Source of the DNA: a virus
Virus record (IMG/VR): IMGVR_UViG_3300029023_000077
Strand: one strand, 5' to 3'
DNA length: 64,000 nt
The notes beneath the pieces are model-generated. The model saw nothing but the letters and a program-made list of their open reading frames with translations. It ran no database searches and was not told the DNA's origin. The translations under genes and the position numbers were made by a program. How positions within the stretch are numbered: position 1 is the first letter of the stretch; each line of letters starts with the position of its first letter. This document shows positions 4,906 to 45,641 of the stretch, piece by piece.

Positions 4906-5971
4906 CCTTTTGTTCGCAGGTGATTTGCACAAGAGGCATAAAGACATATCAACCATCGAAGGGTATGTGAAGTGTACGCATGCGGTACAGGCTCAGTTAG
5001 AACGTGTAATTCAAGATCGGCATGTTGATTACTTTATAAGTCTCGGTGATTGGTATGATAAAGGGTATGCTGCTGACATATCAGCTGCATTATCTGACTG
5101 TGATGCTGATATTCAGATGTCTAAGGTCTTGAATGGTAACTTCTATGGATTGATTGGAAACCATATACGATTGAGTATGGATTCTAATCCGGAGTTGCAC
5201 TTAATTCAACCGCATGCCTATTTGAGAAGCAGGCAGCCTGTTACACGCAAGGATCAAATCATACACACACCTGGAATGTTAAGGATAAATGACGTACAGA
5301 TATCATTCCAGCATTATGATATGGGTTTAAGTAGTGTGGCAGATTACAAGCCTAAGAGAGAATCTTGGGCAAAGTACCACATTGCATTATTCCATACACC
5401 ATTAGTTGTGCCGGGTTATAAGTTAATCGACACACAGTATGGTTACAATATCTCATCCAATAATGATATTGCTTATACATTGGAGAATGTAGATTTGGCA
5501 ATCTGTGGTGATATACATAAACCACTGGGACAATTTGATATTAACAAGCCAAATGGCACAAAGACTGTTATGATTGTGCCGGGCTCACTTACAAATACAG
5601 ACGCAGGTGATGCAAATCGCCATGCGTCTATTTCTATGCCTTTTATTCAGATAGGTCTTAATTCTGAAGTTAAGATTCAGTATATTCCGTTTGACTTGTT
5701 AACTAATACGGTGACGTTTAAAAAGAAGAATATTGAACAAGCACAGGACAAGATGAAAACGTTACGTGGTAAAAGTTTAGAGAATCTGTATAACCCTGAA
5801 GATGTTGTGGCGGCTCTAAGTCACAGAGAAGATACACTCTTATCACTAAATGCGTTTATGGAGTCTAAAGGGTACACTCAAACTGATAAACAGCTTATTC
5901 TGAGTGTAATGCAAAATCCAGAGGATATTTTAAACCTAGTGAAGATATGGCAGGGTGAGAAGATCGTATAG
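4883..5971 (+). CDS. calcineurin-like metallophosphoesterase, SbcD/Mre11-like nuclease
   Basis: Motifs GDLH, LGDWYDKG (GDxxD), IGNHI (GNH) in canonical order. Confidence 0.7.
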   Translation: MTENYWTNLLFAGDLHKRHKDISTIEGYVKCTHAVQAQLERVIQDRHVDYFISLGDWYDKGYAADISAALSDCDADIQMSKVLNGNFYGLIGNHIRLSMDSNPELHLIQPHAYLRSRQPVTRKDQIIHTPGMLRINDVQISFQHYDMGLSSVADYKPKRESWAKYHIALFHTPLVVPGYKLIDTQYGYNISSNNDIAYTLENVDLAICGDIHKPLGQFDINKPNGTKTVMIVPGSLTNTDAGDANRHASISMPFIQIGLNSEVKIQYIPFDLLTNTVTFKKKNIEQAQDKMKTLRGKSLENLYNPEDVVAALSHREDTLLSLNAFMESKGYTQTDKQLILSVMQNPEDILNLVKIWQGEKIV

Positions 5972-14217: not shown

Positions 14218-16260
14218 ATGATTGAATGTACGAAAGCGATTGATGGGTTAGTAAGTGCAGCTTTTGGGAAGAATATGGTGACTATCTCTGATTTGAAGAA
14301 GATGATGGACAGATTTGCACTTGATCCTAAGGTATCAGAAGTAGCCAGAGAAGCATTCATTGTCAGTGATGTTGACCTGAACAGACGCATGCTCAAGGAG
14401 TTTGAAAAGAAAGCAGCGGCTAAGCATGAAGAGGTTGTCATTATTTTTGTAGCAAAGAAAGGTCCTGCACCATTCAAAGAAATGGCAGGTGTTAATGCTA
14501 TTTTAGAAAAACCGACACCAGAAGATTTGAGTAAAACAACATTCGGTATTATCGAGAGCATTACACAGAAGAATGGCGTTGTACCTATTACTGGTGTAAC
14601 AGATAGCGCAAAAGATTTTGTGAGACAGGAAGAACCAGTTGATCTTGATGTACTTACAGATGAATTTGGTAACCCACTGGAATTTGACCTTAACCGGGTC
14701 GTTGAGGACGAGAAGCCACAGGAAGATACAGCACCGATTGACGTTCCTGTTCCTACTTTGGAGGAGCAGCCAGTTCAGGAAGAGCCGCCAGTCCAGTTTG
14801 ATAAGCCTGAGGATCTTGTTGACCGTATCAAGATGTGCGATAAAGTTAAGGACATTAATATCTTGACACGTGAGCTGACAGCTACAGCTGTCATTAAGGA
14901 GATGATCAAGTCTTCAGCAGACTACACAGGAATTGAAGAACGTTTGAAAGGGCTTAATGAGAAGATTCAAGCAGTATATCTTGATACAACAATTCCTGAG
15001 CAGGATAAGTTGGATAAGGTTCGTGCTCTACTCTATGATAAAGGTTATTACAGAACAAAGACTAACACTATTATTGAGCAGCGTGTAGAAGAGCTTATCA
15101 AGACTATTACTGACCGGACAAGAGAATGCTTGGATAAGCGATGCCAGGAATTAGAGAGGGCAATCGTTAATTATTCATCAGGAGTAAAAGCTCCTTTGGA
15201 TACTGCCAGGGTGTCTAGCCTGATTGATGATCGTGCAAACATTCTTCTGGAAATTACAGCTTTGCGTGAAGAAGTGCAGAATATCTATCTTAAGGTAAAC
15301 AAGTTTGCAGGTGATGCTACTGCTAATATTCTTGAAGACAGTGTGGTTCGCACAGGAAGCCCATTAATTGATGCTCGTTTAAGGTTAGCTGGAGATACTA
15401 CAGTACCTGAGCAGACAACAGAAATCATTGAGAAGATTTTAGAACTGTCAAGTACTAAGTCTGAGGAGTTTAAGGAAGCAAATAGAAAATTAATCATTCT
15501 TACACAGAAGTTGCAGACTGTTATGAATTTAGACAAAGATTTGATTGACGCCCTTACGCAGGCTGTTGAGCTTCTGCAGAGTAACAATATTGAGGATCGT
15601 ATCGTACAGGAGACACTGCTAAAGAAGTCACTTAGGTTCTTTGTGGCAAAAGAAGGCAGTGGAAGGACTGTTATCCCATACATTTGCTCTAAGTTGAAGT
15701 CCAGGACAAACTGTAATGTGCTTTATGTGGATATCGCAGGTGATTCTAAGCTCGCAGATTATACAGAGAGTTACATGAGTCTGGATGATTGGTTAGGTAA
15801 TCAGTATCAGGAGCAGTTCTGTGCAGTAGTTGGTACAATCTCAAATACGCCAGAGGCAGCACAGCGTTTGCTTGTTGCCTTAACAAAGGCAGCTGACTAC
15901 TATCGTGTAATTAATGTTGTAATGAGTCCTGAACAGAAAGAGATTTTTGACATTCTTGTTCCAGATACGGTATGTGTTAATTATATCGTTGACCCTACAT
16001 CACAGTCACTTGATTTCTTTAAGGGCTATATCAAGGAGACTAAATGTGAAAATGTGGCTCAGCGTGTAATTATTAACAAGTGTATCCCTAGTACGACTAG
16101 TATGATTCTTGAGAAGCTGGATCTTATCATGAATGGAGACGTACATGTCGTTACAGTACCGTATGAGCCTCTGATTACGGAATGTAGTCTGCGTGGTGTT
16201 AAGCCATATGAGTTGCAGGTCGTTACAGAAGCATTCAGAGAGGTGTGCAAAGTATGCTAA
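14218..16260 (+). CDS. large hypothetical protein with acidic, proline-rich linker
   Basis: 680-aa ORF; EEQPVQEEPPVQ low-complexity segment; RBS AAGAAAGAGAGG. Confidence 0.55.
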   Translation: MIECTKAIDGLVSAAFGKNMVTISDLKKMMDRFALDPKVSEVAREAFIVSDVDLNRRMLKEFEKKAAAKHEEVVIIFVAKKGPAPFKEMAGVNAILEKPTPEDLSKTTFGIIESITQKNGVVPITGVTDSAKDFVRQEEPVDLDVLTDEFGNPLEFDLNRVVEDEKPQEDTAPIDVPVPTLEEQPVQEEPPVQFDKPEDLVDRIKMCDKVKDINILTRELTATAVIKEMIKSSADYTGIEERLKGLNEKIQAVYLDTTIPEQDKLDKVRALLYDKGYYRTKTNTIIEQRVEELIKTITDRTRECLDKRCQELERAIVNYSSGVKAPLDTARVSSLIDDRANILLEITALREEVQNIYLKVNKFAGDATANILEDSVVRTGSPLIDARLRLAGDTTVPEQTTEIIEKILELSSTKSEEFKEANRKLIILTQKLQTVMNLDKDLIDALTQAVELLQSNNIEDRIVQETLLKKSLRFFVAKEGSGRTVIPYICSKLKSRTNCNVLYVDIAGDSKLADYTESYMSLDDWLGNQYQEQFCAVVGTISNTPEAAQRLLVALTKAADYYRVINVVMSPEQKEIFDILVPDTVCVNYIVDPTSQSLDFFKGYIKETKCENVAQRVIINKCIPSTTSMILEKLDLIMNGDVHVVTVPYEPLITECSLRGVKPYELQVVTEAFREVCKVC

Positions 16261-17648
16261 ATCTTGATGGTTATTTGGATTGTAATAAAGTCCTAGACAT
16301 CAATAGGTATACGAGTCTTAGATTTGCAGATTCACGTGTATTTAAAACGCCAGAGGCATTGTCTTTATATGAGCAGAATTACATGCTTGCATCGGATATT
16401 AAAAAATTGTGTGAGAAAGAATATGGTCTTGAGCTGTTTGAGCCAAGACCATCTTTTATACCAGATGATATCATAAATCATTACAACGGTTCAGGTTATG
16501 TACCTATAAAGTATGAACCTATGAAGAATATCTTGTTGTTGATGTATCTGCCTGAAGTAAAAACATTAGAAAGTCATTACCCTAATGTGCATATTGAGAC
16601 TAAGCCAACAACCATATATTACTATATGAAATATTATCAGAAGTATTATGGTGTTCACAGATCTCTGCGGGATATTCCAGCTAAGATGTTATTTGATTTT
16701 GTTGTAAAAGAAGCTATTGAGAAAGATGCTGCAGATATTACGATTTCAAATACTGGTAAAGCCACAGTTGTATATTACAATATACGCAAGCGGAAGGTAT
16801 GGTCAAACTATTGCTTTAGCCAAGAAATCATGGGTGACATTATAAAGTTTATCACTATAAGCTCACCATTAGACAGAGGGTCTCGTAAAGCTAAGGCTTT
16901 AGATATCGATTTAAATGAAAATTACCGTGGCAGAGTCATGATAAATCAATCATTTAAAGGCATGACTATTACAATTCGTGTTTTACCAAACGCAGCATTC
17001 TCTACTGATATAACAGAGTTAAATTTGACAAAAGAAGCCGAAGAGTGGATGTTGGATAATATTCTTGATATGGAGAAAGGGCTTCGCTTGATTGTAGGTG
17101 AGACAATGTCCGGGAAAAATACAGATGCTTTGTCCCTGTTACAGCGATTAGTAGAGACAGACAGGTATAAGATAGTGTCCGTAGAGATACCAGTGGAGCA
17201 AGAATTGCCTGGTGTTGAACAAATTAATTGTGATACGCCGGACGATTACTCAAACAACATAAAATCTTTAATCAGAGTGAATCCAGACTTTGTTTACATT
17301 ACAGAGATGCAGGATGCTACTGCATTAGACACTATTAAGATAACTAACACAGGTAAATGTGTTTTATCAACAGTACATGCAAACTCTGTCGGGGATACTA
17401 TCGTGAGGCTGATGGATATGACAGGTTTGCCTCAGGATAGAATTGTACAAACTTTGCATTCTGTAGTGTATCAGGAACTCGTAAGAGATGACTCTAAGGA
17501 TTTTGTATATCCAAGATGCCGGTATGTTCGTTTCACGCCTGAGTTGAAGTACCAGCTTTATGGGAAACCACTAGGTGTGATGTTAAAGATTATTCAGGAT
17601 TATGAGGAGGGGGATGTATGGACATCTATTCAGCATTTGGCACAATAG
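16245..17648 (+). CDS. GspE/PilT/VirB11-family traffic ATPase
   Basis: Walker A GETMSGKNT; Asp/His boxes RVNPDFVYITEMQDATA ... TGKCVLSTVHANSVGDTIVRLMDM as in PilT/VirB11. Confidence 0.65.
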   Translation: MQSMLNLDGYLDCNKVLDINRYTSLRFADSRVFKTPEALSLYEQNYMLASDIKKLCEKEYGLELFEPRPSFIPDDIINHYNGSGYVPIKYEPMKNILLLMYLPEVKTLESHYPNVHIETKPTTIYYYMKYYQKYYGVHRSLRDIPAKMLFDFVVKEAIEKDAADITISNTGKATVVYYNIRKRKVWSNYCFSQEIMGDIIKFITISSPLDRGSRKAKALDIDLNENYRGRVMINQSFKGMTITIRVLPNAAFSTDITELNLTKEAEEWMLDNILDMEKGLRLIVGETMSGKNTDALSLLQRLVETDRYKIVSVEIPVEQELPGVEQINCDTPDDYSNNIKSLIRVNPDFVYITEMQDATALDTIKITNTGKCVLSTVHANSVGDTIVRLMDMTGLPQDRIVQTLHSVVYQELVRDDSKDFVYPRCRYVRFTPELKYQLYGKPLGVMLKIIQDYEEGDVWTSIQHLAQ

Positions 17649-17887
17649 ACAGATCTGTTTTACAGGTTGTTAAGTCATTAATATCATTGGAGCCAGTAAA
17701 AGAGGAAGAGCAAGTAGATATGATCCGTGTTACCGAAAGTCCTCTTGTCCTTACAAAAGACATTATGGTGACAGGAAAAGTTGTGACAGCGCACAACCTG
17801 CACCAGTATAAGAACAATTTCTATAAGTTAAAAGTGACTGAGAATATTGAATGTCTGCTTGATGACTTATTAGAAATTGATGAGTAA
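17618..17887 (+). CDS. hypothetical protein
   Basis: 89-aa ORF. Confidence 0.35.
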   Translation: MDIYSAFGTIDRSVLQVVKSLISLEPVKEEEQVDMIRVTESPLVLTKDIMVTGKVVTAHNLHQYKNNFYKLKVTENIECLLDDLLEIDE

Positions 17888-18497
17888 TGGAGGTTGTATG
17901 TTAGAATTTGTTGCAATTGACTCACATAACCAGGTAGTGAACTTTACTCTTGAAGACTGTCCGGTCTTTCTAAATGAACGTCAGGTGATTTTAGCAAAGA
18001 CCGAAGGGTCTAACTTGATATATGCACACACAATAGTTAGACGTGATAAAACTGAGCGTGTAATGGAAGGAGATAAAGTTTTTATAGATAACCAGTTTGT
18101 AGGTATCGTTATCTATAATCAGGGGTTTTGCTTGCAAAAAAGTGATGGTACTTTAGAAAAATTTAAGAGATCCAGACATATATCAGTAAGAGTTGGTAAT
18201 TACTCTTCGATGCAAGAAGCTGTGCAAAGTTCAAATAGGCAGCCTATTATGTTTCGTTACAAAGAACGGACTTTCTCTATGAAAGCCCTGTTGTGTTATA
18301 ACAATGGTTTCGTAGTTGTCCATACATCAAATGACCACTATAAGAAAGTGTTGGCAAGTGATATCAGCTTAATGACAGGTGTAGGCAAATACTGTTTTGG
18401 CGATTTGACGGATGAAGGTGGCAGAATAGTCCTAAATCACTTACAGCCATGTGTTATGCTCAACAATAAAATCACAGAAATCAGCGAAGTAAATTAG
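17877..18497 (+). CDS. hypothetical protein
   Basis: 206-aa ORF. Confidence 0.45.
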   Translation: MMSNGGCMLEFVAIDSHNQVVNFTLEDCPVFLNERQVILAKTEGSNLIYAHTIVRRDKTERVMEGDKVFIDNQFVGIVIYNQGFCLQKSDGTLEKFKRSRHISVRVGNYSSMQEAVQSSNRQPIMFRYKERTFSMKALLCYNNGFVVVHTSNDHYKKVLASDISLMTGVGKYCFGDLTDEGGRIVLNHLQPCVMLNNKITEISEVN

Positions 18498-18510
18498 GAG
18501 GAAAGAAGAA

Positions 18511-19665
18511 ATGAGAAATGAGATTCGTGGTATTGCGGTCGATAATGGTGGTAGTGAAGTAAGAGTGATGGATGGTATGAATCCTGTATTAGAAGACATG
18601 ATCAAGCTGAAGAATGATTTTGTCTCTATCAAGGAGAAGGATTTCAGGGTAAAAGAGGTTGCTGAACCTGCAAAGCTTTGTAGGGTATTGGAAGCGCCTA
18701 ATCCTGATTTCATGGGAATCTTTGCACAAGGTTTGACAGGTAAAGCATATGAAGGTCAGGTTGTGGCTATTTCCAGCCAGAAAGAAAAGACTGCTGACCC
18801 AAATTATTATAAGCAGTTTATATTTGCAGTGGCACAAGATGCATTGAAAGCTTGGATTCAGTCAGGTGGTTACTCTATGTACTCTAACGGTAACTCTGAA
18901 TCACAGCAGCACCCGGACATTGCTGATTCGTACGATTACTGTATTGTGGCTTGCATCCCTATTCAGGAGTTCAGCGGTGCAAAAGATTGTGCAGGATTGT
19001 TAAAAAATACGTTGCAGGGTCATTATGTTGTAGAGTTTCCATTGTTAGATAAGAAACCTGTGATCTCTTTCAACATTAAAGCTGAGTTTATGGGTGCAGC
19101 ACCTGAAGGTGGTATTGCTGTTAAGGCTCTGAAAGATCAGTTAGAAGAAGATGATATTTCCTTATTGGTTGATATGGGTTGTGTTACAACAGATATTGCA
19201 TTATTTCAAGGTACACATCTCTTAGGTAGGGTGTCATCTGTTAAATTTGCAAGTAGTACATTAGTTGCAAATATTCGTGCTGTATTGGCAGATGAAGGCT
19301 ATTTCGTGTCAGAAGCACAGGCTGAAAATGTACTGATTGCAAAACGTGTTAAGGATGGTCATGAGTCCGTAGATGTTTCTGCCATTGTAGAGGAGCAGAG
19401 CCGTAATTTTGTTCGTAACTACTTACAGAATGAGATAATTGGTATCCTTAATGCAAATCATGTTAATGCAAGACAGGTTCAGAACTTTGTGCCAATAGGT
19501 GCTTCTTTTAATAACCCGGAAAGTAATGCACTTATTTCAGAGATTGTTGCTTGTGCTAATTTACAGAAAGCAAAGCTCTGCATTCTTGCTGACGATTTAC
19601 GTTATGTGAATATCCAGCAGGCTAGTCGTTTTGTCAAGAAGTTTGTTAAGAAAGCAAAGGCGTGA
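18511..19665 (+). CDS. actin-like ATPase (ParM/Alp family)
   Basis: Phosphate-1 GIAVDNGGSEVRV and phosphate-2 LLVDMGCVTTDIALF motifs of actin-fold segregation ATPases. Confidence 0.55.
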   Translation: MRNEIRGIAVDNGGSEVRVMDGMNPVLEDMIKLKNDFVSIKEKDFRVKEVAEPAKLCRVLEAPNPDFMGIFAQGLTGKAYEGQVVAISSQKEKTADPNYYKQFIFAVAQDALKAWIQSGGYSMYSNGNSESQQHPDIADSYDYCIVACIPIQEFSGAKDCAGLLKNTLQGHYVVEFPLLDKKPVISFNIKAEFMGAAPEGGIAVKALKDQLEEDDISLLVDMGCVTTDIALFQGTHLLGRVSSVKFASSTLVANIRAVLADEGYFVSEAQAENVLIAKRVKDGHESVDVSAIVEEQSRNFVRNYLQNEIIGILNANHVNARQVQNFVPIGASFNNPESNALISEIVACANLQKAKLCILADDLRYVNIQQASRFVKKFVKKAKA

Positions 19666-37809: not shown

Positions 37810-38616
37810 ATGAATTACTGGACAGATAAGGAAAGAAGAAGAATAGCTGCGGTTGAATGGAATGAATATATCCATAATAATTATAAGGCTGAAATCAATG
37901 AGTGCATTAAGAAGACTGAGTTATGGGATGAGTTTTGTCCTTTAGAATATTCTGATGTTGTAGGTAGTGAGGTTGAATCTATGAAGGTTCTACAATTAAC
38001 CACAACACAGGCAATCAAACACTGCAGCCAAGAAGGTGAGAGAATAGCAGTATTGAATTTTGCTAGTTTCAAAAATCCTGGTGGTATGTTTTTAAATGGT
38101 TCTGGTGCGCAGGAGGAATCCCTATGCCATGAATCTCTACTGTACCCTGTATTAAAAGCATTCAATGCAAGTTATTATGCGGTTAACCATAATAACCTGA
38201 ATAGGGCTCTGTATAAAGATAAGTTGCTGTATTCTGTGGATATTCCATTCTTTGATATGAAGGCAAAGAAACCAGCAGACAAGGCGGATGTTATCACATG
38301 TGCAGCTCCTAATTGGGGTGCCTACGCAAAGTATCATGAGCCTATTTCTGATAGAGACATTGCTTTAAATCGTGAGATGCTTCGTTCACGGTTTGAGAAG
38401 CTCTACTTTGTTGCAGCAAAACATAATGTTGATACATTGATTCTTGGTGCATGGGGATGTGGTGTTTTCAAACAGAATATACATACTGTTATTGATGTAA
38501 TGCTTGAAGTAATAATGTCATATCAGGCAAATATTAAACATATTGTATTTGCTGTGCCTGATGCGGATAGTTTTAGAATATTTGATAGCAGGGTGAGAAA
38601 AGCAGTAGAAGCATAA
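37810..38616 (+). CDS. microbial-type poly(ADP-ribose) glycohydrolase (DUF2263/TIGR02452 macro domain)
   Basis: VLNFASFKNPGGMFLNGSGAQEESLCHESLLY = PARG GGG-x6-8-QEE signature; LILGAWGCGVFKQN second conserved block. Confidence 0.8.
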   Translation: MNYWTDKERRRIAAVEWNEYIHNNYKAEINECIKKTELWDEFCPLEYSDVVGSEVESMKVLQLTTTQAIKHCSQEGERIAVLNFASFKNPGGMFLNGSGAQEESLCHESLLYPVLKAFNASYYAVNHNNLNRALYKDKLLYSVDIPFFDMKAKKPADKADVITCAAPNWGAYAKYHEPISDRDIALNREMLRSRFEKLYFVAAKHNVDTLILGAWGCGVFKQNIHTVIDVMLEVIMSYQANIKHIVFAVPDADSFRIFDSRVRKAVEA

Positions 38617-41338: not shown

Positions 41339-41353
41339 TAAGGAGTGTTCAGT

Positions 41354-41590
41354 ATGACAAGTATTAAAGTAAATTTGGATTCTGTTAATAAGGTAAAGGA
41401 GTTTGTAGAAATTACAGGGAAATTCCCTGAAGATTTAGATTTGGCTCATGGAAAGTACGTAATTGATGCTAAATCCCTGATGGGTATTTTCAGCCTTGAT
41501 TTGTCAAAGCCACTGGACCTGACAATCAACTCAGATGATGAGGATAGAGTTGAAGAGATTTCAGCTGCATTCAGTTCATTTAGGGTGTAA
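41354..41590 (+). CDS. HPr-like fold protein lacking the phosphorylatable histidine
   Basis: GKYVIDAKSLMGIFSLDLSKPLDLTINSDDEDRVEEI parallels HPr [32 protein letters not shown]; no His at the His15-equivalent position. Confidence 0.4.
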   Translation: MTSIKVNLDSVNKVKEFVEITGKFPEDLDLAHGKYVIDAKSLMGIFSLDLSKPLDLTINSDDEDRVEEISAAFSSFRV

Positions 41591-41679: not shown

Positions 41680-42073
41680 AGGCCTGTAATGGTTTCGACA
41701 GGGTTATGAGGTTAAGTATTGCATCGGTCAGTCACCTATAACCAAAAAACAAAAAAATAGACGCTACAAGACGCCCTATGGCTATTGCTGCTTAATCTCG
41801 TGAGAGGTTGGTTGTTATAGTTCCGTTGCTACCGGGTAATGGGACGATGGTGATAGCTACCTCAACGTTTGCTACTATAAAGTAAATAGCTATGATGCTA
41901 GACTCCCAATCTTAGTATTGATATACAGCCTCGCAAGGAGGCTAGGTGCACAAACAATGGCCATGTAAGGTTTGTTAATTTTACCTGTATATGACTGTAA
42001 CGAAAATTAACTAAGATGTAGATATACTTATTAGTACTTTCTTTGGACACGGGTTCGATTCCCGTCAGGTCCA
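41680..42073 (+). ncRNA. ssrA: tmRNA (SsrA-like transfer-messenger RNA), tag ATRRPMAIAA
   Basis: 5' AGGCCUGUAAUGGUUUCGACAGGG parallels GGGGCUGAUUCUGGAUUCGACGGG. AAAAAAAUAGAC-GCU... parallels E. coli AAAAAAUAGUC-GCA at the resume codon. The tag frame GCU ACA AGA CGC CCU AUG GCU AUU GCU GCU UAA lies at 41763-41795. 3' end is T-arm ACGGG-UUCGAUU-CCCGU plus acceptor CAGGUCC-A pairing with 5' GGCCUG (G3:U). Length ~394 nt. Confidence 0.8.
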
Positions 42074-42161
42074 CTTAGATACTAGGAGAGGCTAAGACTC
42101 TAGTAGTGATGAGACCATCACACTAGTAGCTTTAAGTAAACAAAGCGAAGGAGATTTATTT

Positions 42162-42914
42162 ATGCGAGTAATATCTATGCAAGGTAAAGTAGTCTGGGAC
42201 ATTCTACAGAGAGATAAGGTGTATTATGCTGATAAGGCCTTACTGCGAGAAGACAACTACTATAGTAAGGATATTAAGCGACTTAATGGGGCTATACCTA
42301 TTTGGTGTTATAGTTGGCCAGATTTAAGTTTTCATTCAATGTATAACGGGGAAGTTCTAGATTATTTAAGAATGGAAATGAGTCTAGAACAAAAGAATTG
42401 CTGGGATTCTTTTGTAATGTTTGAGTTAGATATCCCAGATGATTCTTTAATTGGGTACACGCACAATGCAAGTGCATATTCTGTGATAATACCTAGATTA
42501 AGCTTAGATATGGTAAAAGCTGTTTATACAGTAAGGGACGCAAATAATGCTAATCCTTACTGGAAAGTAATAAACCCTATATGGATTAGTGAGACAGATA
42601 AGTGTGACATTATTACTAAGACAGAGTTAAACTGTGAATTGCTTACAGAAATGGAAGAAAGTATATCAGATGTTTTCGTTGAAGACGAAAGTGGAAGGTG
42701 CTTATGGTGTAATAAAGAAAGTACTTATACTGTTGATGGAAAGCATTTCTGTTCCCTGGGTTGTAAATGGGAGCATGAAAGAAGATTTATTAATGTGCTA
42801 AGAAGCAGAGGCATTTCTAGGTGTAGAGCGCTATGTATTCACTCTAGTTTTACAGATGCTGATTTTGCGCATGGAATTGTAAAGGCAGCTAGGAACGTAG
42901 TATCTAATAAGTAA
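42162..42914 (+). CDS. hypothetical protein with C-terminal Cys/His cluster
   Basis: 250-aa ORF; CLWCN...CSLGCKWEH. Confidence 0.5.
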   Translation: MRVISMQGKVVWDILQRDKVYYADKALLREDNYYSKDIKRLNGAIPIWCYSWPDLSFHSMYNGEVLDYLRMEMSLEQKNCWDSFVMFELDIPDDSLIGYTHNASAYSVIIPRLSLDMVKAVYTVRDANNANPYWKVINPIWISETDKCDIITKTELNCELLTEMEESISDVFVEDESGRCLWCNKESTYTVDGKHFCSLGCKWEHERRFINVLRSRGISRCRALCIHSSFTDADFAHGIVKAARNVVSNK

Positions 42915-45189: not shown

Positions 45190-45260
45190 CTGCACATGGT
45201 ATCTATAGTGAAGACAAGAGTTAAGTTTAAAAATAATATTTTATGGATGGAGGTTTTATT

Positions 45261-45641
45261 ATGCTAGATATTAATAAGATGAGAGAAAAACAGGCTTCTG
45301 TTAAAGAAGGTTTAGAATACGATAAGGTTCATGATTTCGACGATTTACAGATGGAAGAAATTAGATTAGGGCTCACTGATGGGCTAGATGTATCTGTCTA
45401 TGCTAAACATGAGTTTGATAGTGAGCAAATGTCAAAAATTAGATTAGGACTTCTCAATGGATTGGATGTATCTGTCTATGCTAAGCCTGAGCTCTCTTGG
45501 AAGCAGATGGAAGAAATTAGATTAGGACTCGCTGATGGACTGGATGTATCTGTTTACGCTAAGCCTGAGCTCTCTTGGAAGCAGATGGAAGAAATTAGAT
45601 TAGGGTTTACCACGTTAACTAAAATTAGAAATATTTTATGA
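45261..45641 (+). CDS. hypothetical protein with 26-aa tandem repeats, MLDINKMREK N-terminus
   Basis: ATG 45261 after GGAGGTTTTATT; 3.5 tandem 78-nt repeats LGLxDGLDVSVYAKPELSWKQMEEIR. Confidence 0.5.
   Translation: MLDINKMREKQASVKEGLEYDKVHDFDDLQMEEIRLGLTDGLDVSVYAKHEFDSEQMSKIRLGLLNGLDVSVYAKPELSWKQMEEIRLGLADGLDVSVYAKPELSWKQMEEIRLGFTTLTKIRNIL

Follow-up and report, generated by a model that had tools for sequence, protein, structure and literature searches.

The 64,000-nucleotide (nt) stretch of DNA from IMG/VR virus record IMGVR_UViG_3300029023_000077 (the window, as the whole stretch is called below) carries a real, full-length, one-piece transfer-messenger RNA (tmRNA, ssrA) gene. The locus is regarded as genuine because two independent detectors, ARAGORN and the covariance model RF00023 of Rfam, agree on it. 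The only RNA gene that ARAGORN found in the window is this tmRNA, placed at 41680-42074 (+) and carrying the tag peptide ATRRPMAIAA*, and Infernal aligned the full RF00023 model (1-374) to 41680-42076 with 87.3 bits (E 1.6e-32), well above the curated gathering score of 47 bits; apart from the tmRNA, no family exceeded the threshold in the Rfam scan of the window. It is likely that the element carrying this gene supplies an active tmRNA, which relies on the SmpB, AlaRS, EF-Tu, RNase P and CCA-adding enzyme of the host, adds (A)ATRRPMAIAA to stalled proteins and frees ribosomes.

A preliminary description of the window had named a one-piece tmRNA, its limits, its resume site and its tag, and each of these was borne out. 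The coordinates are exact, 42073 being the discriminator base, AAAAAAAUAGAC|GCU is present in the sequence, and translation of 41763-41798 gives ATRRPMAIAA*. The gene is 394 nt long and does not encode CCA, the bases after A73 being CUU. The same gene, with the same tag and the same A1, occurs in 10 more metagenome contigs from various samples, where the tmRNA is identical or 99% identical, and it is therefore not an assembly artefact. The parts of the gene are as follows.

41680..42073, + strand: tmRNA gene, from A1 to discriminator A73 (ARAGORN, RF00023)
41680..41686, + strand: 5' strand of the acceptor stem, AGGCCUG, with A1 opposite C72 and G3 in the alanine identity pair G3:U70 (sequence)
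41687..41698, + strand: D-loop analogue UAAUGGUUUCGA of the tRNA-like domain (identity of nt 2-24 to the tmRNA L024)
41699..41725, + strand: 5' strand of helix 2, tmRNA nt 20-46 (RNAalifold, cofold, pair counts)
41726..41736, + strand: small hairpin GGU-CAGUC-ACC at the position of pseudoknot 1 (PK1; invariant in 7 sequences)
41744..41762, + strand: A-rich linker and frame-setting sequence, ending AAUAGAC (sequence)
41763..41795, + strand: tag frame GCU ACA AGA CGC CCU AUG GCU AUU GCU GCU UAA, ATRRPMAIAA* (ARAGORN, translation)
41793..41810, + strand: helix 5 hairpin of 7 bp with loop GUGA and the UAA stop inside its 5' strand (100% paired in 7 sequences)
41815..42014, + strand: variable region in place of pseudoknots 2-4 (PK2-PK4), with hairpins that show compensatory changes (alignment of relatives)
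42015..42045, + strand: 3' strand of helix 2, tmRNA nt 336-366 (RNAalifold, cofold, pair counts)
42049..42065, + strand: T arm ACGGG-UUCGAUU-CCCGU (RF00023 alignment, pair counts)
42066..42072, + strand: 3' strand of the acceptor stem, CAGGUCC (sequence)

In the acceptor stem, six of the seven positions are paired, and both G3:U70 and the discriminator A73 are present. Helix 2 was counted at 18 pairs (nt 20-24, 34-40 and 41-46), every one of which is paired in all 7 sequences compared, and the loop of helix 5 is not the same in different lineages. The A at 41759, 4 nt before the resume codon, is the counterpart of A86 of E. coli; the U-A found five and four bases before the resume codon is conserved, as AAAAAAAUAGAC|GCU here and AAAAAAUAGUC|GCA in E. 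coli. Mutagenesis in E. coli showed that the frame is set by A86 and that the length of the A-run may vary (PMC2481249). The A-run at 41750-41757, just before UAGAC, is polymorphic, with 7, 8 or 11 A among tmRNA copies that are otherwise 99-100% identical, which agrees with the tolerance seen in that mutagenesis.

The two ends of the RNA and its middle have different affinities. Nucleotides 2-24 are 100% identical to the tmRNA of a Roseburia metagenome-assembled genome (L024), and nt 363-396 show 100% identity to some 20 tmRNAs of Roseburia. Among species-representative genomes, 23 have the 29-nt 3' end; almost all belong to Roseburia or to another Lachnospiraceae genus, R. inulinivorans DSM 16841 being one of them. 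The D-loop analogue UAAUGGUUUCGAC and the T arm are the same as in Roseburia tmRNAs, and the Roseburia genes likewise lack an encoded CCA. The middle of about 330 nt, by contrast, has no match among the other tmRNAs compared, Roseburia included, if four diverged relatives described below (L172-L175) are set aside, and the same holds for the variable region at 41815-42014. Chromosomal tmRNAs of Roseburia and other Lachnospiraceae (e.g. that of R. inulinivorans DSM 16841, L035) are thus alike in being one-piece, in having identical or nearly identical nt 2-24 and last 34 nt, in G3:U70, A73 and the missing CCA, in a similar frame-setting motif before GCU and in a tag that ends with a hydrophobic residue and AA. 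They differ in a body without detectable similarity to that of the window tmRNA, in length (~340 nt as against 394 nt), in the tag (AEDNLAYAA, charge -2, as against ATRRPMAIAA, +2), in the first pair (G1:C72 as against A1 opposite C72) and in the location of the gene, which in the window is not beside rnr-smpB. The simplest reading of the identical ends would be that the tRNA-like domain is held to the host form, since it must work with the RNase P, AlaRS, SmpB and EF-Tu of the host. A member of the Lachnospiraceae such as Roseburia is the probable host, a lead that comes solely from the match of the tmRNA ends.

An identity of 34 nt at the 3' end with Roseburia ssrA would also be expected if the window were a piece of bacterial chromosome, or if its tmRNA were a host gene at a prophage junction or attachment site, and the 3' ends of ssrA genes are common integration sites. 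This explanation is very hard to sustain. The gene is full length and not a 3' fragment, and neither the RNA body nor the tag resembles that of any Roseburia tmRNA. Gene content was examined in the window and in 10-kb extensions on each side, about 84 kb in total and about a quarter or less of the element; in this region RNase R and an integrase were not found, and SmpB was detected neither by Pfam scans nor by tblastn with a Roseburia-type SmpB. The genes of these ~84 kb are strictly co-oriented and mostly of unknown function, with uniform GC (guanine + cytosine) content of ~0.37 and uniform skew. No rnr-smpB adjoins the window tmRNA, unlike in the chromosomal context exemplified by L018, where the order is rnr-smpB-ssrA. 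Both the co-oriented array and the lack of a nearby smpB or integrase had been anticipated in the preliminary description, and together with the missing RNase R they lead to the conclusion that the element carries its own ssrA. The record L018 (MT837964.1, 594-3744) is an observation in its own right: it is labelled 'UNVERIFIED: Bacteriophage sp.' in GenBank but actually holds bacterial genes for RNase R and SmpB, then ssrA and a gene for a GGDEF/GAF protein, in that order. Its tmRNA is of the Roseburia type, with the tag ADDNLAYAA, and was missed by ARAGORN, scoring 132.6 bits with Rfam. Flagging this mislabelled record is a practical yield of the analysis.

Relatives of the window tmRNA were sought in metagenomes with the tag back-translated into a degenerate pattern. 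Four diverged tmRNAs, L172-L175, were obtained, two of them on contigs of 186 and 189 kb; their GC content is 0.34. The peptide is identical to that of the window, with one synonymous change (CGC>CGU). Homology in the flanks is found directly upstream of the tmRNA gene, and among the neighbouring proteins only those of 65 amino acids (aa; 59% identity) and 376 aa (28%) are detectable as shared, the rest being undetectable. The identity of the relatives to the window, segment by segment, is given below; the tag frame was part of the search pattern.

Tag frame: 97%
T arm and 3' strand of the acceptor stem: 92-96%
5' tRNA-like part: 93%
PK1 region: 78%
Helix 5: 58-68%
PK2-PK4 region: 41-70%

The tag frame and the T arm are therefore, by these values, the best-conserved segments. 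A structure was written by hand, comprising the acceptor stem, T arm, helix 2, the hairpin of the PK1 region, helix 5 and four hairpins in the PK2 region. Its 57 pairs are 99% paired over 7 sequences, part of the structure having been derived from the same 7 sequences on which it was counted, and when the partners were slid by 1-3 columns the value fell to 37-45%. Compensatory double changes, affecting both sides, occur at 3 pairs. In the window lineage, the middle of helix 2 has been moved into another register by five substitutions, and the long helix is kept, with -15.4 kcal/mol as against -18.7 kcal/mol in the relatives. Because the compensatory changes and the register shift keep the helices, the alignment indicates that the window tmRNA is under continued structural selection, which speaks against a dead gene.

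Several of these values could nevertheless be read as signs of decay, namely of an ssrA captured from a host and drifting to a pseudogene in the window lineage. The mismatched A1, a weak PK1, the less stable helix 2, an Rfam score of 87 bits as against 133 bits for chromosomal copies, and the finding that related elements have no tmRNA beside homologues of the gene downstream of it would all fit such a course. Decay is, however, an improbable explanation. The changes in helix 2 are coordinated and restore pairing in a new register, and compensatory pairs are present elsewhere; at least 15 contigs, recovered from different samples, retain an intact tag frame and every identity element; and the tag peptide has stayed constant across a deep divergence of the carrier elements.

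The most conspicuous irregularity of the gene is at the top of the acceptor stem. The mismatch between A1 and C72, suspected when the window was first described, is present in all 11 window-type sequences (the window and 10 close variants). The comparison took in 58 one-piece tmRNAs: that of the window, 35 from IMG/VR contigs and 22 with a Roseburia-type 3' end. All but the window tmRNA have G1:C72 (57 of 58); the pair is thus a near-universal rather than a strictly defining feature of tmRNA, and one that the window lacks. L172, L173 and L175 have G1:C72, and for this reason A1 is taken as derived; judged from these alignments, A1 opposite C72 is both real and derived. In L174, G1 stands opposite A72 (~8090 of that contig, tmRNA position 72); here the acceptor pair that is affected in the window is mismatched again, independently, in one contig and possibly through an assembly error. 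The 1:72 positions of the window lineage and of L174 are the sole unpaired cells of the whole modelled structure.

This concentration of unpaired positions at one pair, with a mismatch unique among the 58 tmRNAs and a different one in L174, could mean that the molecule is attenuated or is a decoy, which titrates host SmpB or is poorly delivered owing to A1 opposite C72, and so damps or modulates host trans-translation. The host-identical tRNA-like domain is the SmpB-binding part, and both a phage with a tRNA-like-domain-only molecule and tmRNA inhibition by such molecules have been described (PMC4131195). Such a role is considered unlikely, because the mRNA-like part, needless for a pure decoy, is intact and best conserved (frame-setting sequence, 10 codons, stop and helix 5), and because three of the four relatives have a normal G1:C72.

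The second unusual trait is the tag. ATRRPMAIAA has a net charge of +2, and the tags of tmRNAs with a Roseburia-type 3' end, AEDNLAYAA, AEDNLAFAA, AEDNLAIAA, AEENLAYAA or AKENSVDYAFAA, have -1 or -2. In a survey of 55 tmRNAs on IMG/VR contigs, many of which probably hold host genes at prophage ends, four tags had a charge of +2 or higher and the majority were acidic or neutral. Two further mobile-element tmRNAs share the Roseburia-type 3' end and have basic tags without acidic residues:

L013, 537-866: tmRNA on a viral contig, with the tag AKIINLFRGSRSVAMAA (+3)
L011, 4160-4600, and the same tmRNA at L014, 12142-12582: tmRNA on viral contigs, with the tag GNIFSKMANKVKSLFTFNCVAFA (+3), its frame read by inspection from the Rfam alignment

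They resemble the window tmRNA in having the same 30-35 nt at the 3' end and a body unrelated to the host tmRNA, and differ from it in that their bodies and tags are unrelated to those of the window, in a regular G1:C72 and, for L011/L014, in a position within an array of some 20 tRNAs. Basic tags, then, are uncommon, as the preliminary description held, but they are not unprecedented, and the statement that the tag is unlike those of characterised tmRNAs was too broad. Among the tmRNAs with a Roseburia-type 3' end, basic tags were observed in 3 of 3 mobile-element copies, the window included, and in 0 of 22 from species-representative genomes, in a sample that is small, non-independent and non-random. 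Basic tags may be commoner on mobile elements.

The end of the tag is conventional. AIAA is a natural ending, found in the AEDNLAIAA of L023, which has a Roseburia-type 3' end, and ClpX recognises the C-terminal Ala-Ala-COO- of the tag (PMC7652416). The degron of ATRRPMAIAA is therefore probably intact, with the difference confined to the upstream part. The suggestion in the preliminary description that the tag may be tuned to a particular host protease adaptor is speculative. Two other explanations of the peptide were tried and rejected. It is not a frameshifted host tag, as the other frames read LQDALWLLLL and YKTPYGYCCL and no simple indel links them to AEDNLAYAA. T-R-R is not a Tat (twin-arginine translocation) signal either, since Tat signals sit at the N-terminus.

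A bolder proposal is that ATRRPMAIAA is a mobile-element-specific tag under selection in giant gut elements, by which host trans-translation is reprogrammed and the fate of the rescued proteins changed. Positive charges beside AIAA could slow or redirect recognition by host ClpXP, or, alternatively, the tag could be read by a factor encoded by the element; the loosened 1:72 pair could tune charging or delivery. The basic tags of the two other mobile-element tmRNAs with Roseburia-type ends hint at a wider pattern. This proposal is speculative and is held to be doubtful.

The preferred interpretation, that of an active tmRNA supplied by the element, can be followed step by step. The tmRNA would be made as part of a rightward transcript and processed by RNase P, the 3' trimming enzymes and the CCA-adding enzyme of the host. 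Host AlaRS would charge it with alanine by way of G3:U70 and A73. The RNA, with tRNA-like ends almost identical to those of the host, would be bound by host SmpB and EF-Tu. On entering a stalled ribosome, it would let translation resume at the GCU at 41763, placed by the conserved A four bases upstream, so that (A)ATRRPMAIAA would be added to the stalled protein before its release at UAA. AIAA, at the C-terminus, would act as a ClpXP-type degron, with the basic TRRPM in place of the acidic EDNL of the host tag. The net effect would be additional ribosome-rescue capacity while the element is carried or replicating. What the analysis establishes directly is the identity of the gene, its anatomy and conservation, selection on its structure, its host-like ends and the lack of an smpB nearby; that the RNA is expressed, processed and charged, that it works with host SmpB and that tagged proteins are degraded is inferred.

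A number of observations weigh against this interpretation. AlaRS recognises its substrate mainly through G3:U70, and the 1:72 pair influences EF-Tu binding; A1 opposite C72 weakens the top acceptor pair and could interfere with charging or with the binding of EF-Tu. Neither a sigma-70-type promoter nor a + strand terminator adjoins the tmRNA gene. The search for smpB was negative over a quarter or less of the element, and an smpB of the element is thus possible elsewhere on it. Homologues of the 250-aa protein encoded downstream of the tmRNA (44-84% identity, on contigs of up to 256 kb) have scattered tRNAs and no adjoining tmRNA in their surroundings, so the tmRNA is not a core feature of the wider group of elements. 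The conservation of the tag among the relatives is partly by construction, because the search pattern required the peptide and would have passed over any relative with another tag. Between close variants, mismatches amount to ~1.0% in the tmRNA and 1.95% in the flanks, a difference that is not significant, five single-nucleotide polymorphisms and one indel in 397 nt being too few for a test of selection.

The pseudoknots also belong here. The preliminary description had assumed four of them, which is more than the sequences bear out. At PK1 just a conserved 3-bp GGU/ACC hairpin was found, and the Rfam alignment shows mismatches in this region; on inspection of the alignment, a candidate second, crossing stem of PK1 pairs in L173 and L175 only, with a U-to-G change in its 5' strand in L174. 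In the PK2-PK4 region, RF00023 aligns nested stems and some hairpins covary, but crossing stems were not demonstrated by the model alignment, by stem enumeration, which was too noisy for pseudoknot calls in this AU-rich tmRNA, or by comparison of the 7 sequences. Single-sequence folding did not recover the tmRNA fold (z = -2.5). According to a statement in PMC2481249, pseudoknots are replaceable by other structures in E. coli; their absence from the demonstrated structure is therefore not a strong argument against function.

The gene is set among genes of the element, its immediate neighbours being the following.

41345..41590, + strand: upstream neighbour, an 81-aa HPr-like protein and not smpB (Pfam PF00381, E 5.7e-6)
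42162..42914, + strand: downstream neighbour, a 250-aa protein without known function that served as a marker for the element in metagenomes

The + strand holds all open reading frames (ORFs) of any size in the window, most of them ORFans; GC content varies between 0.32 and 0.40 (~0.37), with a steady positive skew. Pfam and PHROGs scans covered nearly all + strand window ORFs of at least 80 aa, the larger ones with both libraries, and the extensions. The replication genes found in the window and its flanks encode a Family A DNA polymerase (PolA), RNase H, a primase-like protein, a UvrD helicase, a clamp loader and a 5'-3' exonuclease; other products are a PARG (poly-ADP-ribose glycohydrolase)-like hydrolase, PilZ, Band 7, HipA-like kinases and the HPr-like protein. 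The flanking genes had at first been called phage-type. This is not borne out in the ~84 kb examined, in which these scans revealed no terminase, capsid, portal or tail gene, and likewise no Rep or relaxase; megaplasmids also carry tmRNAs (PMC10832533).

The carrier is a very large, unclassified mobile genome of at least 350 kb. Contig ERZ27239532 k119_29866 (350,828 bp), on which the window begins close to position 115,868, matches it with 100% identity over 20.7 kb, and exact copies of the 250-aa downstream protein occur on many metagenome contigs. Proteins identical to those of the window are found on contigs of up to 423 kb and, by the cluster index, proteins of the same 90% clusters on contigs of up to 560-630 kb. 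The element is widespread in assemblies of apparent human-gut cohorts, judged by sample names. In INPHARED and PLSDB there was no close match to the tmRNA, the surrounding 20 kb, the helicase, the secretion-type ATPase, the clamp loader or PolA, and the downstream gene and three family-specific tmRNA patterns were absent from IMG/VR. The self-encoded replisome and the unidirectional, ORFan-rich coding lean towards a huge phage. Megaplasmids have been taken for huge phages before (PMC12934698). The 'Hodor' megaplasmids, with their 44-47% GC and sortases, were ruled out.

Mobile genomes with a tmRNA of their own have been reported. Among phages, tmRNAs are known from Bxz1-like mycobacteriophages, Bacillus phage G and metagenomic huge phages (PMC4131195, PMC7162821, PMC12484599), and the view that an own ssrA is a trait of very large phages thus agrees with documented cases (PMC7162821). 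Common to these and the window are a large mobile genome, a location away from the chromosomal context and tags that diverge from that of the host, the phage G tag being AKLNITNNELQVA. The window differs in that its carrier is not shown to be a phage, in that no tRNA array and no smpB occur in the ~84 kb, in the conserved basic tag of its family and in the mismatched 1:72 pair of its lineage. The megaplasmid pMP7017 of Bifidobacterium breve has a 397-nt tmRNA with the tag ANTVSSSRFTLAA, for which translational support has been proposed (PMC10832533). A length of ~397 nt, a large extrachromosomal element and an Arg-containing, non-acidic tag that ends with AA are shared with the window. However, the phylum and GC content of the host are different, and pMP7017 is a demonstrated conjugative plasmid with a highly transcribed tmRNA, whereas the window tmRNA is known from sequence alone.

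Since tmRNAs on phages and megaplasmids are already described and the window tmRNA is of the standard one-piece form, what is new is the conserved family with a basic tag, the combination of host-identical ends with an unrelated body, and the loosened 1:72 pair. The gene is arguably less unusual than its carrier, a giant and widespread element that the phage and plasmid reference sets lack. We know of no phage- or plasmid-carried tmRNA for which a function has been shown. Host-identical ends, an unrelated body and a tag of opposite charge, kept across deeply diverged carriers, make a clean natural experiment. If the tag alters which protease sees the rescued proteins, or how fast, this would be a new route by which a mobile element manipulates host protein quality control. 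A smaller, practical yield is the Roseburia/Lachnospiraceae host lead for an otherwise unplaced giant gut element.

Some minor observations concern the carrier and its relatives. At 16245-19665 of the window, a gene for a type II/IV secretion-family ATPase (PF00437, E 5.6e-36) and two small ORFs lie upstream of the gene for a 384-aa actin-like protein, which has weak FtsA/ParM matches and falls in a PHROG annotated 'partition protein'; a weak Flp-pilin-like ORF was seen in the relative L042. The ATPase and actin-like genes could form a pilus-like or segregation module of the element. A gene of the microbial PARG type lies at 37810-38616, 3 kb upstream of the tmRNA, and a faint NADAR-DarT1-type match was noted further downstream (L051, 19497-20048). 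These genes may have to do with the reversal of ADP-ribosylation, e.g. in counter-defence. A 78-bp tandem repeat (3.3 copies, 82% matches) occupies 45351-45604 within the ORF 45243-45641 and encodes a 26-aa unit (…EEIRLGL.DGLDVSVYAKPELSWKQM…) of a 132-aa protein without known function; relative to the window, the variants L002/L003 show a rearrangement here. Finally, the IMG/VR contig 3300033463_000201 (L014, 51.5 kb) contains at 5520-5719 (-) a partial match to OLE RNA (RF01071, 109 bits, threshold 50, model positions 284-595 of 616), which adjoins the array of about 20 tRNAs and the tmRNA of that contig. OLE RNA is known from chromosomes of anaerobic Firmicutes, and a copy on a viral contig would be unusual.

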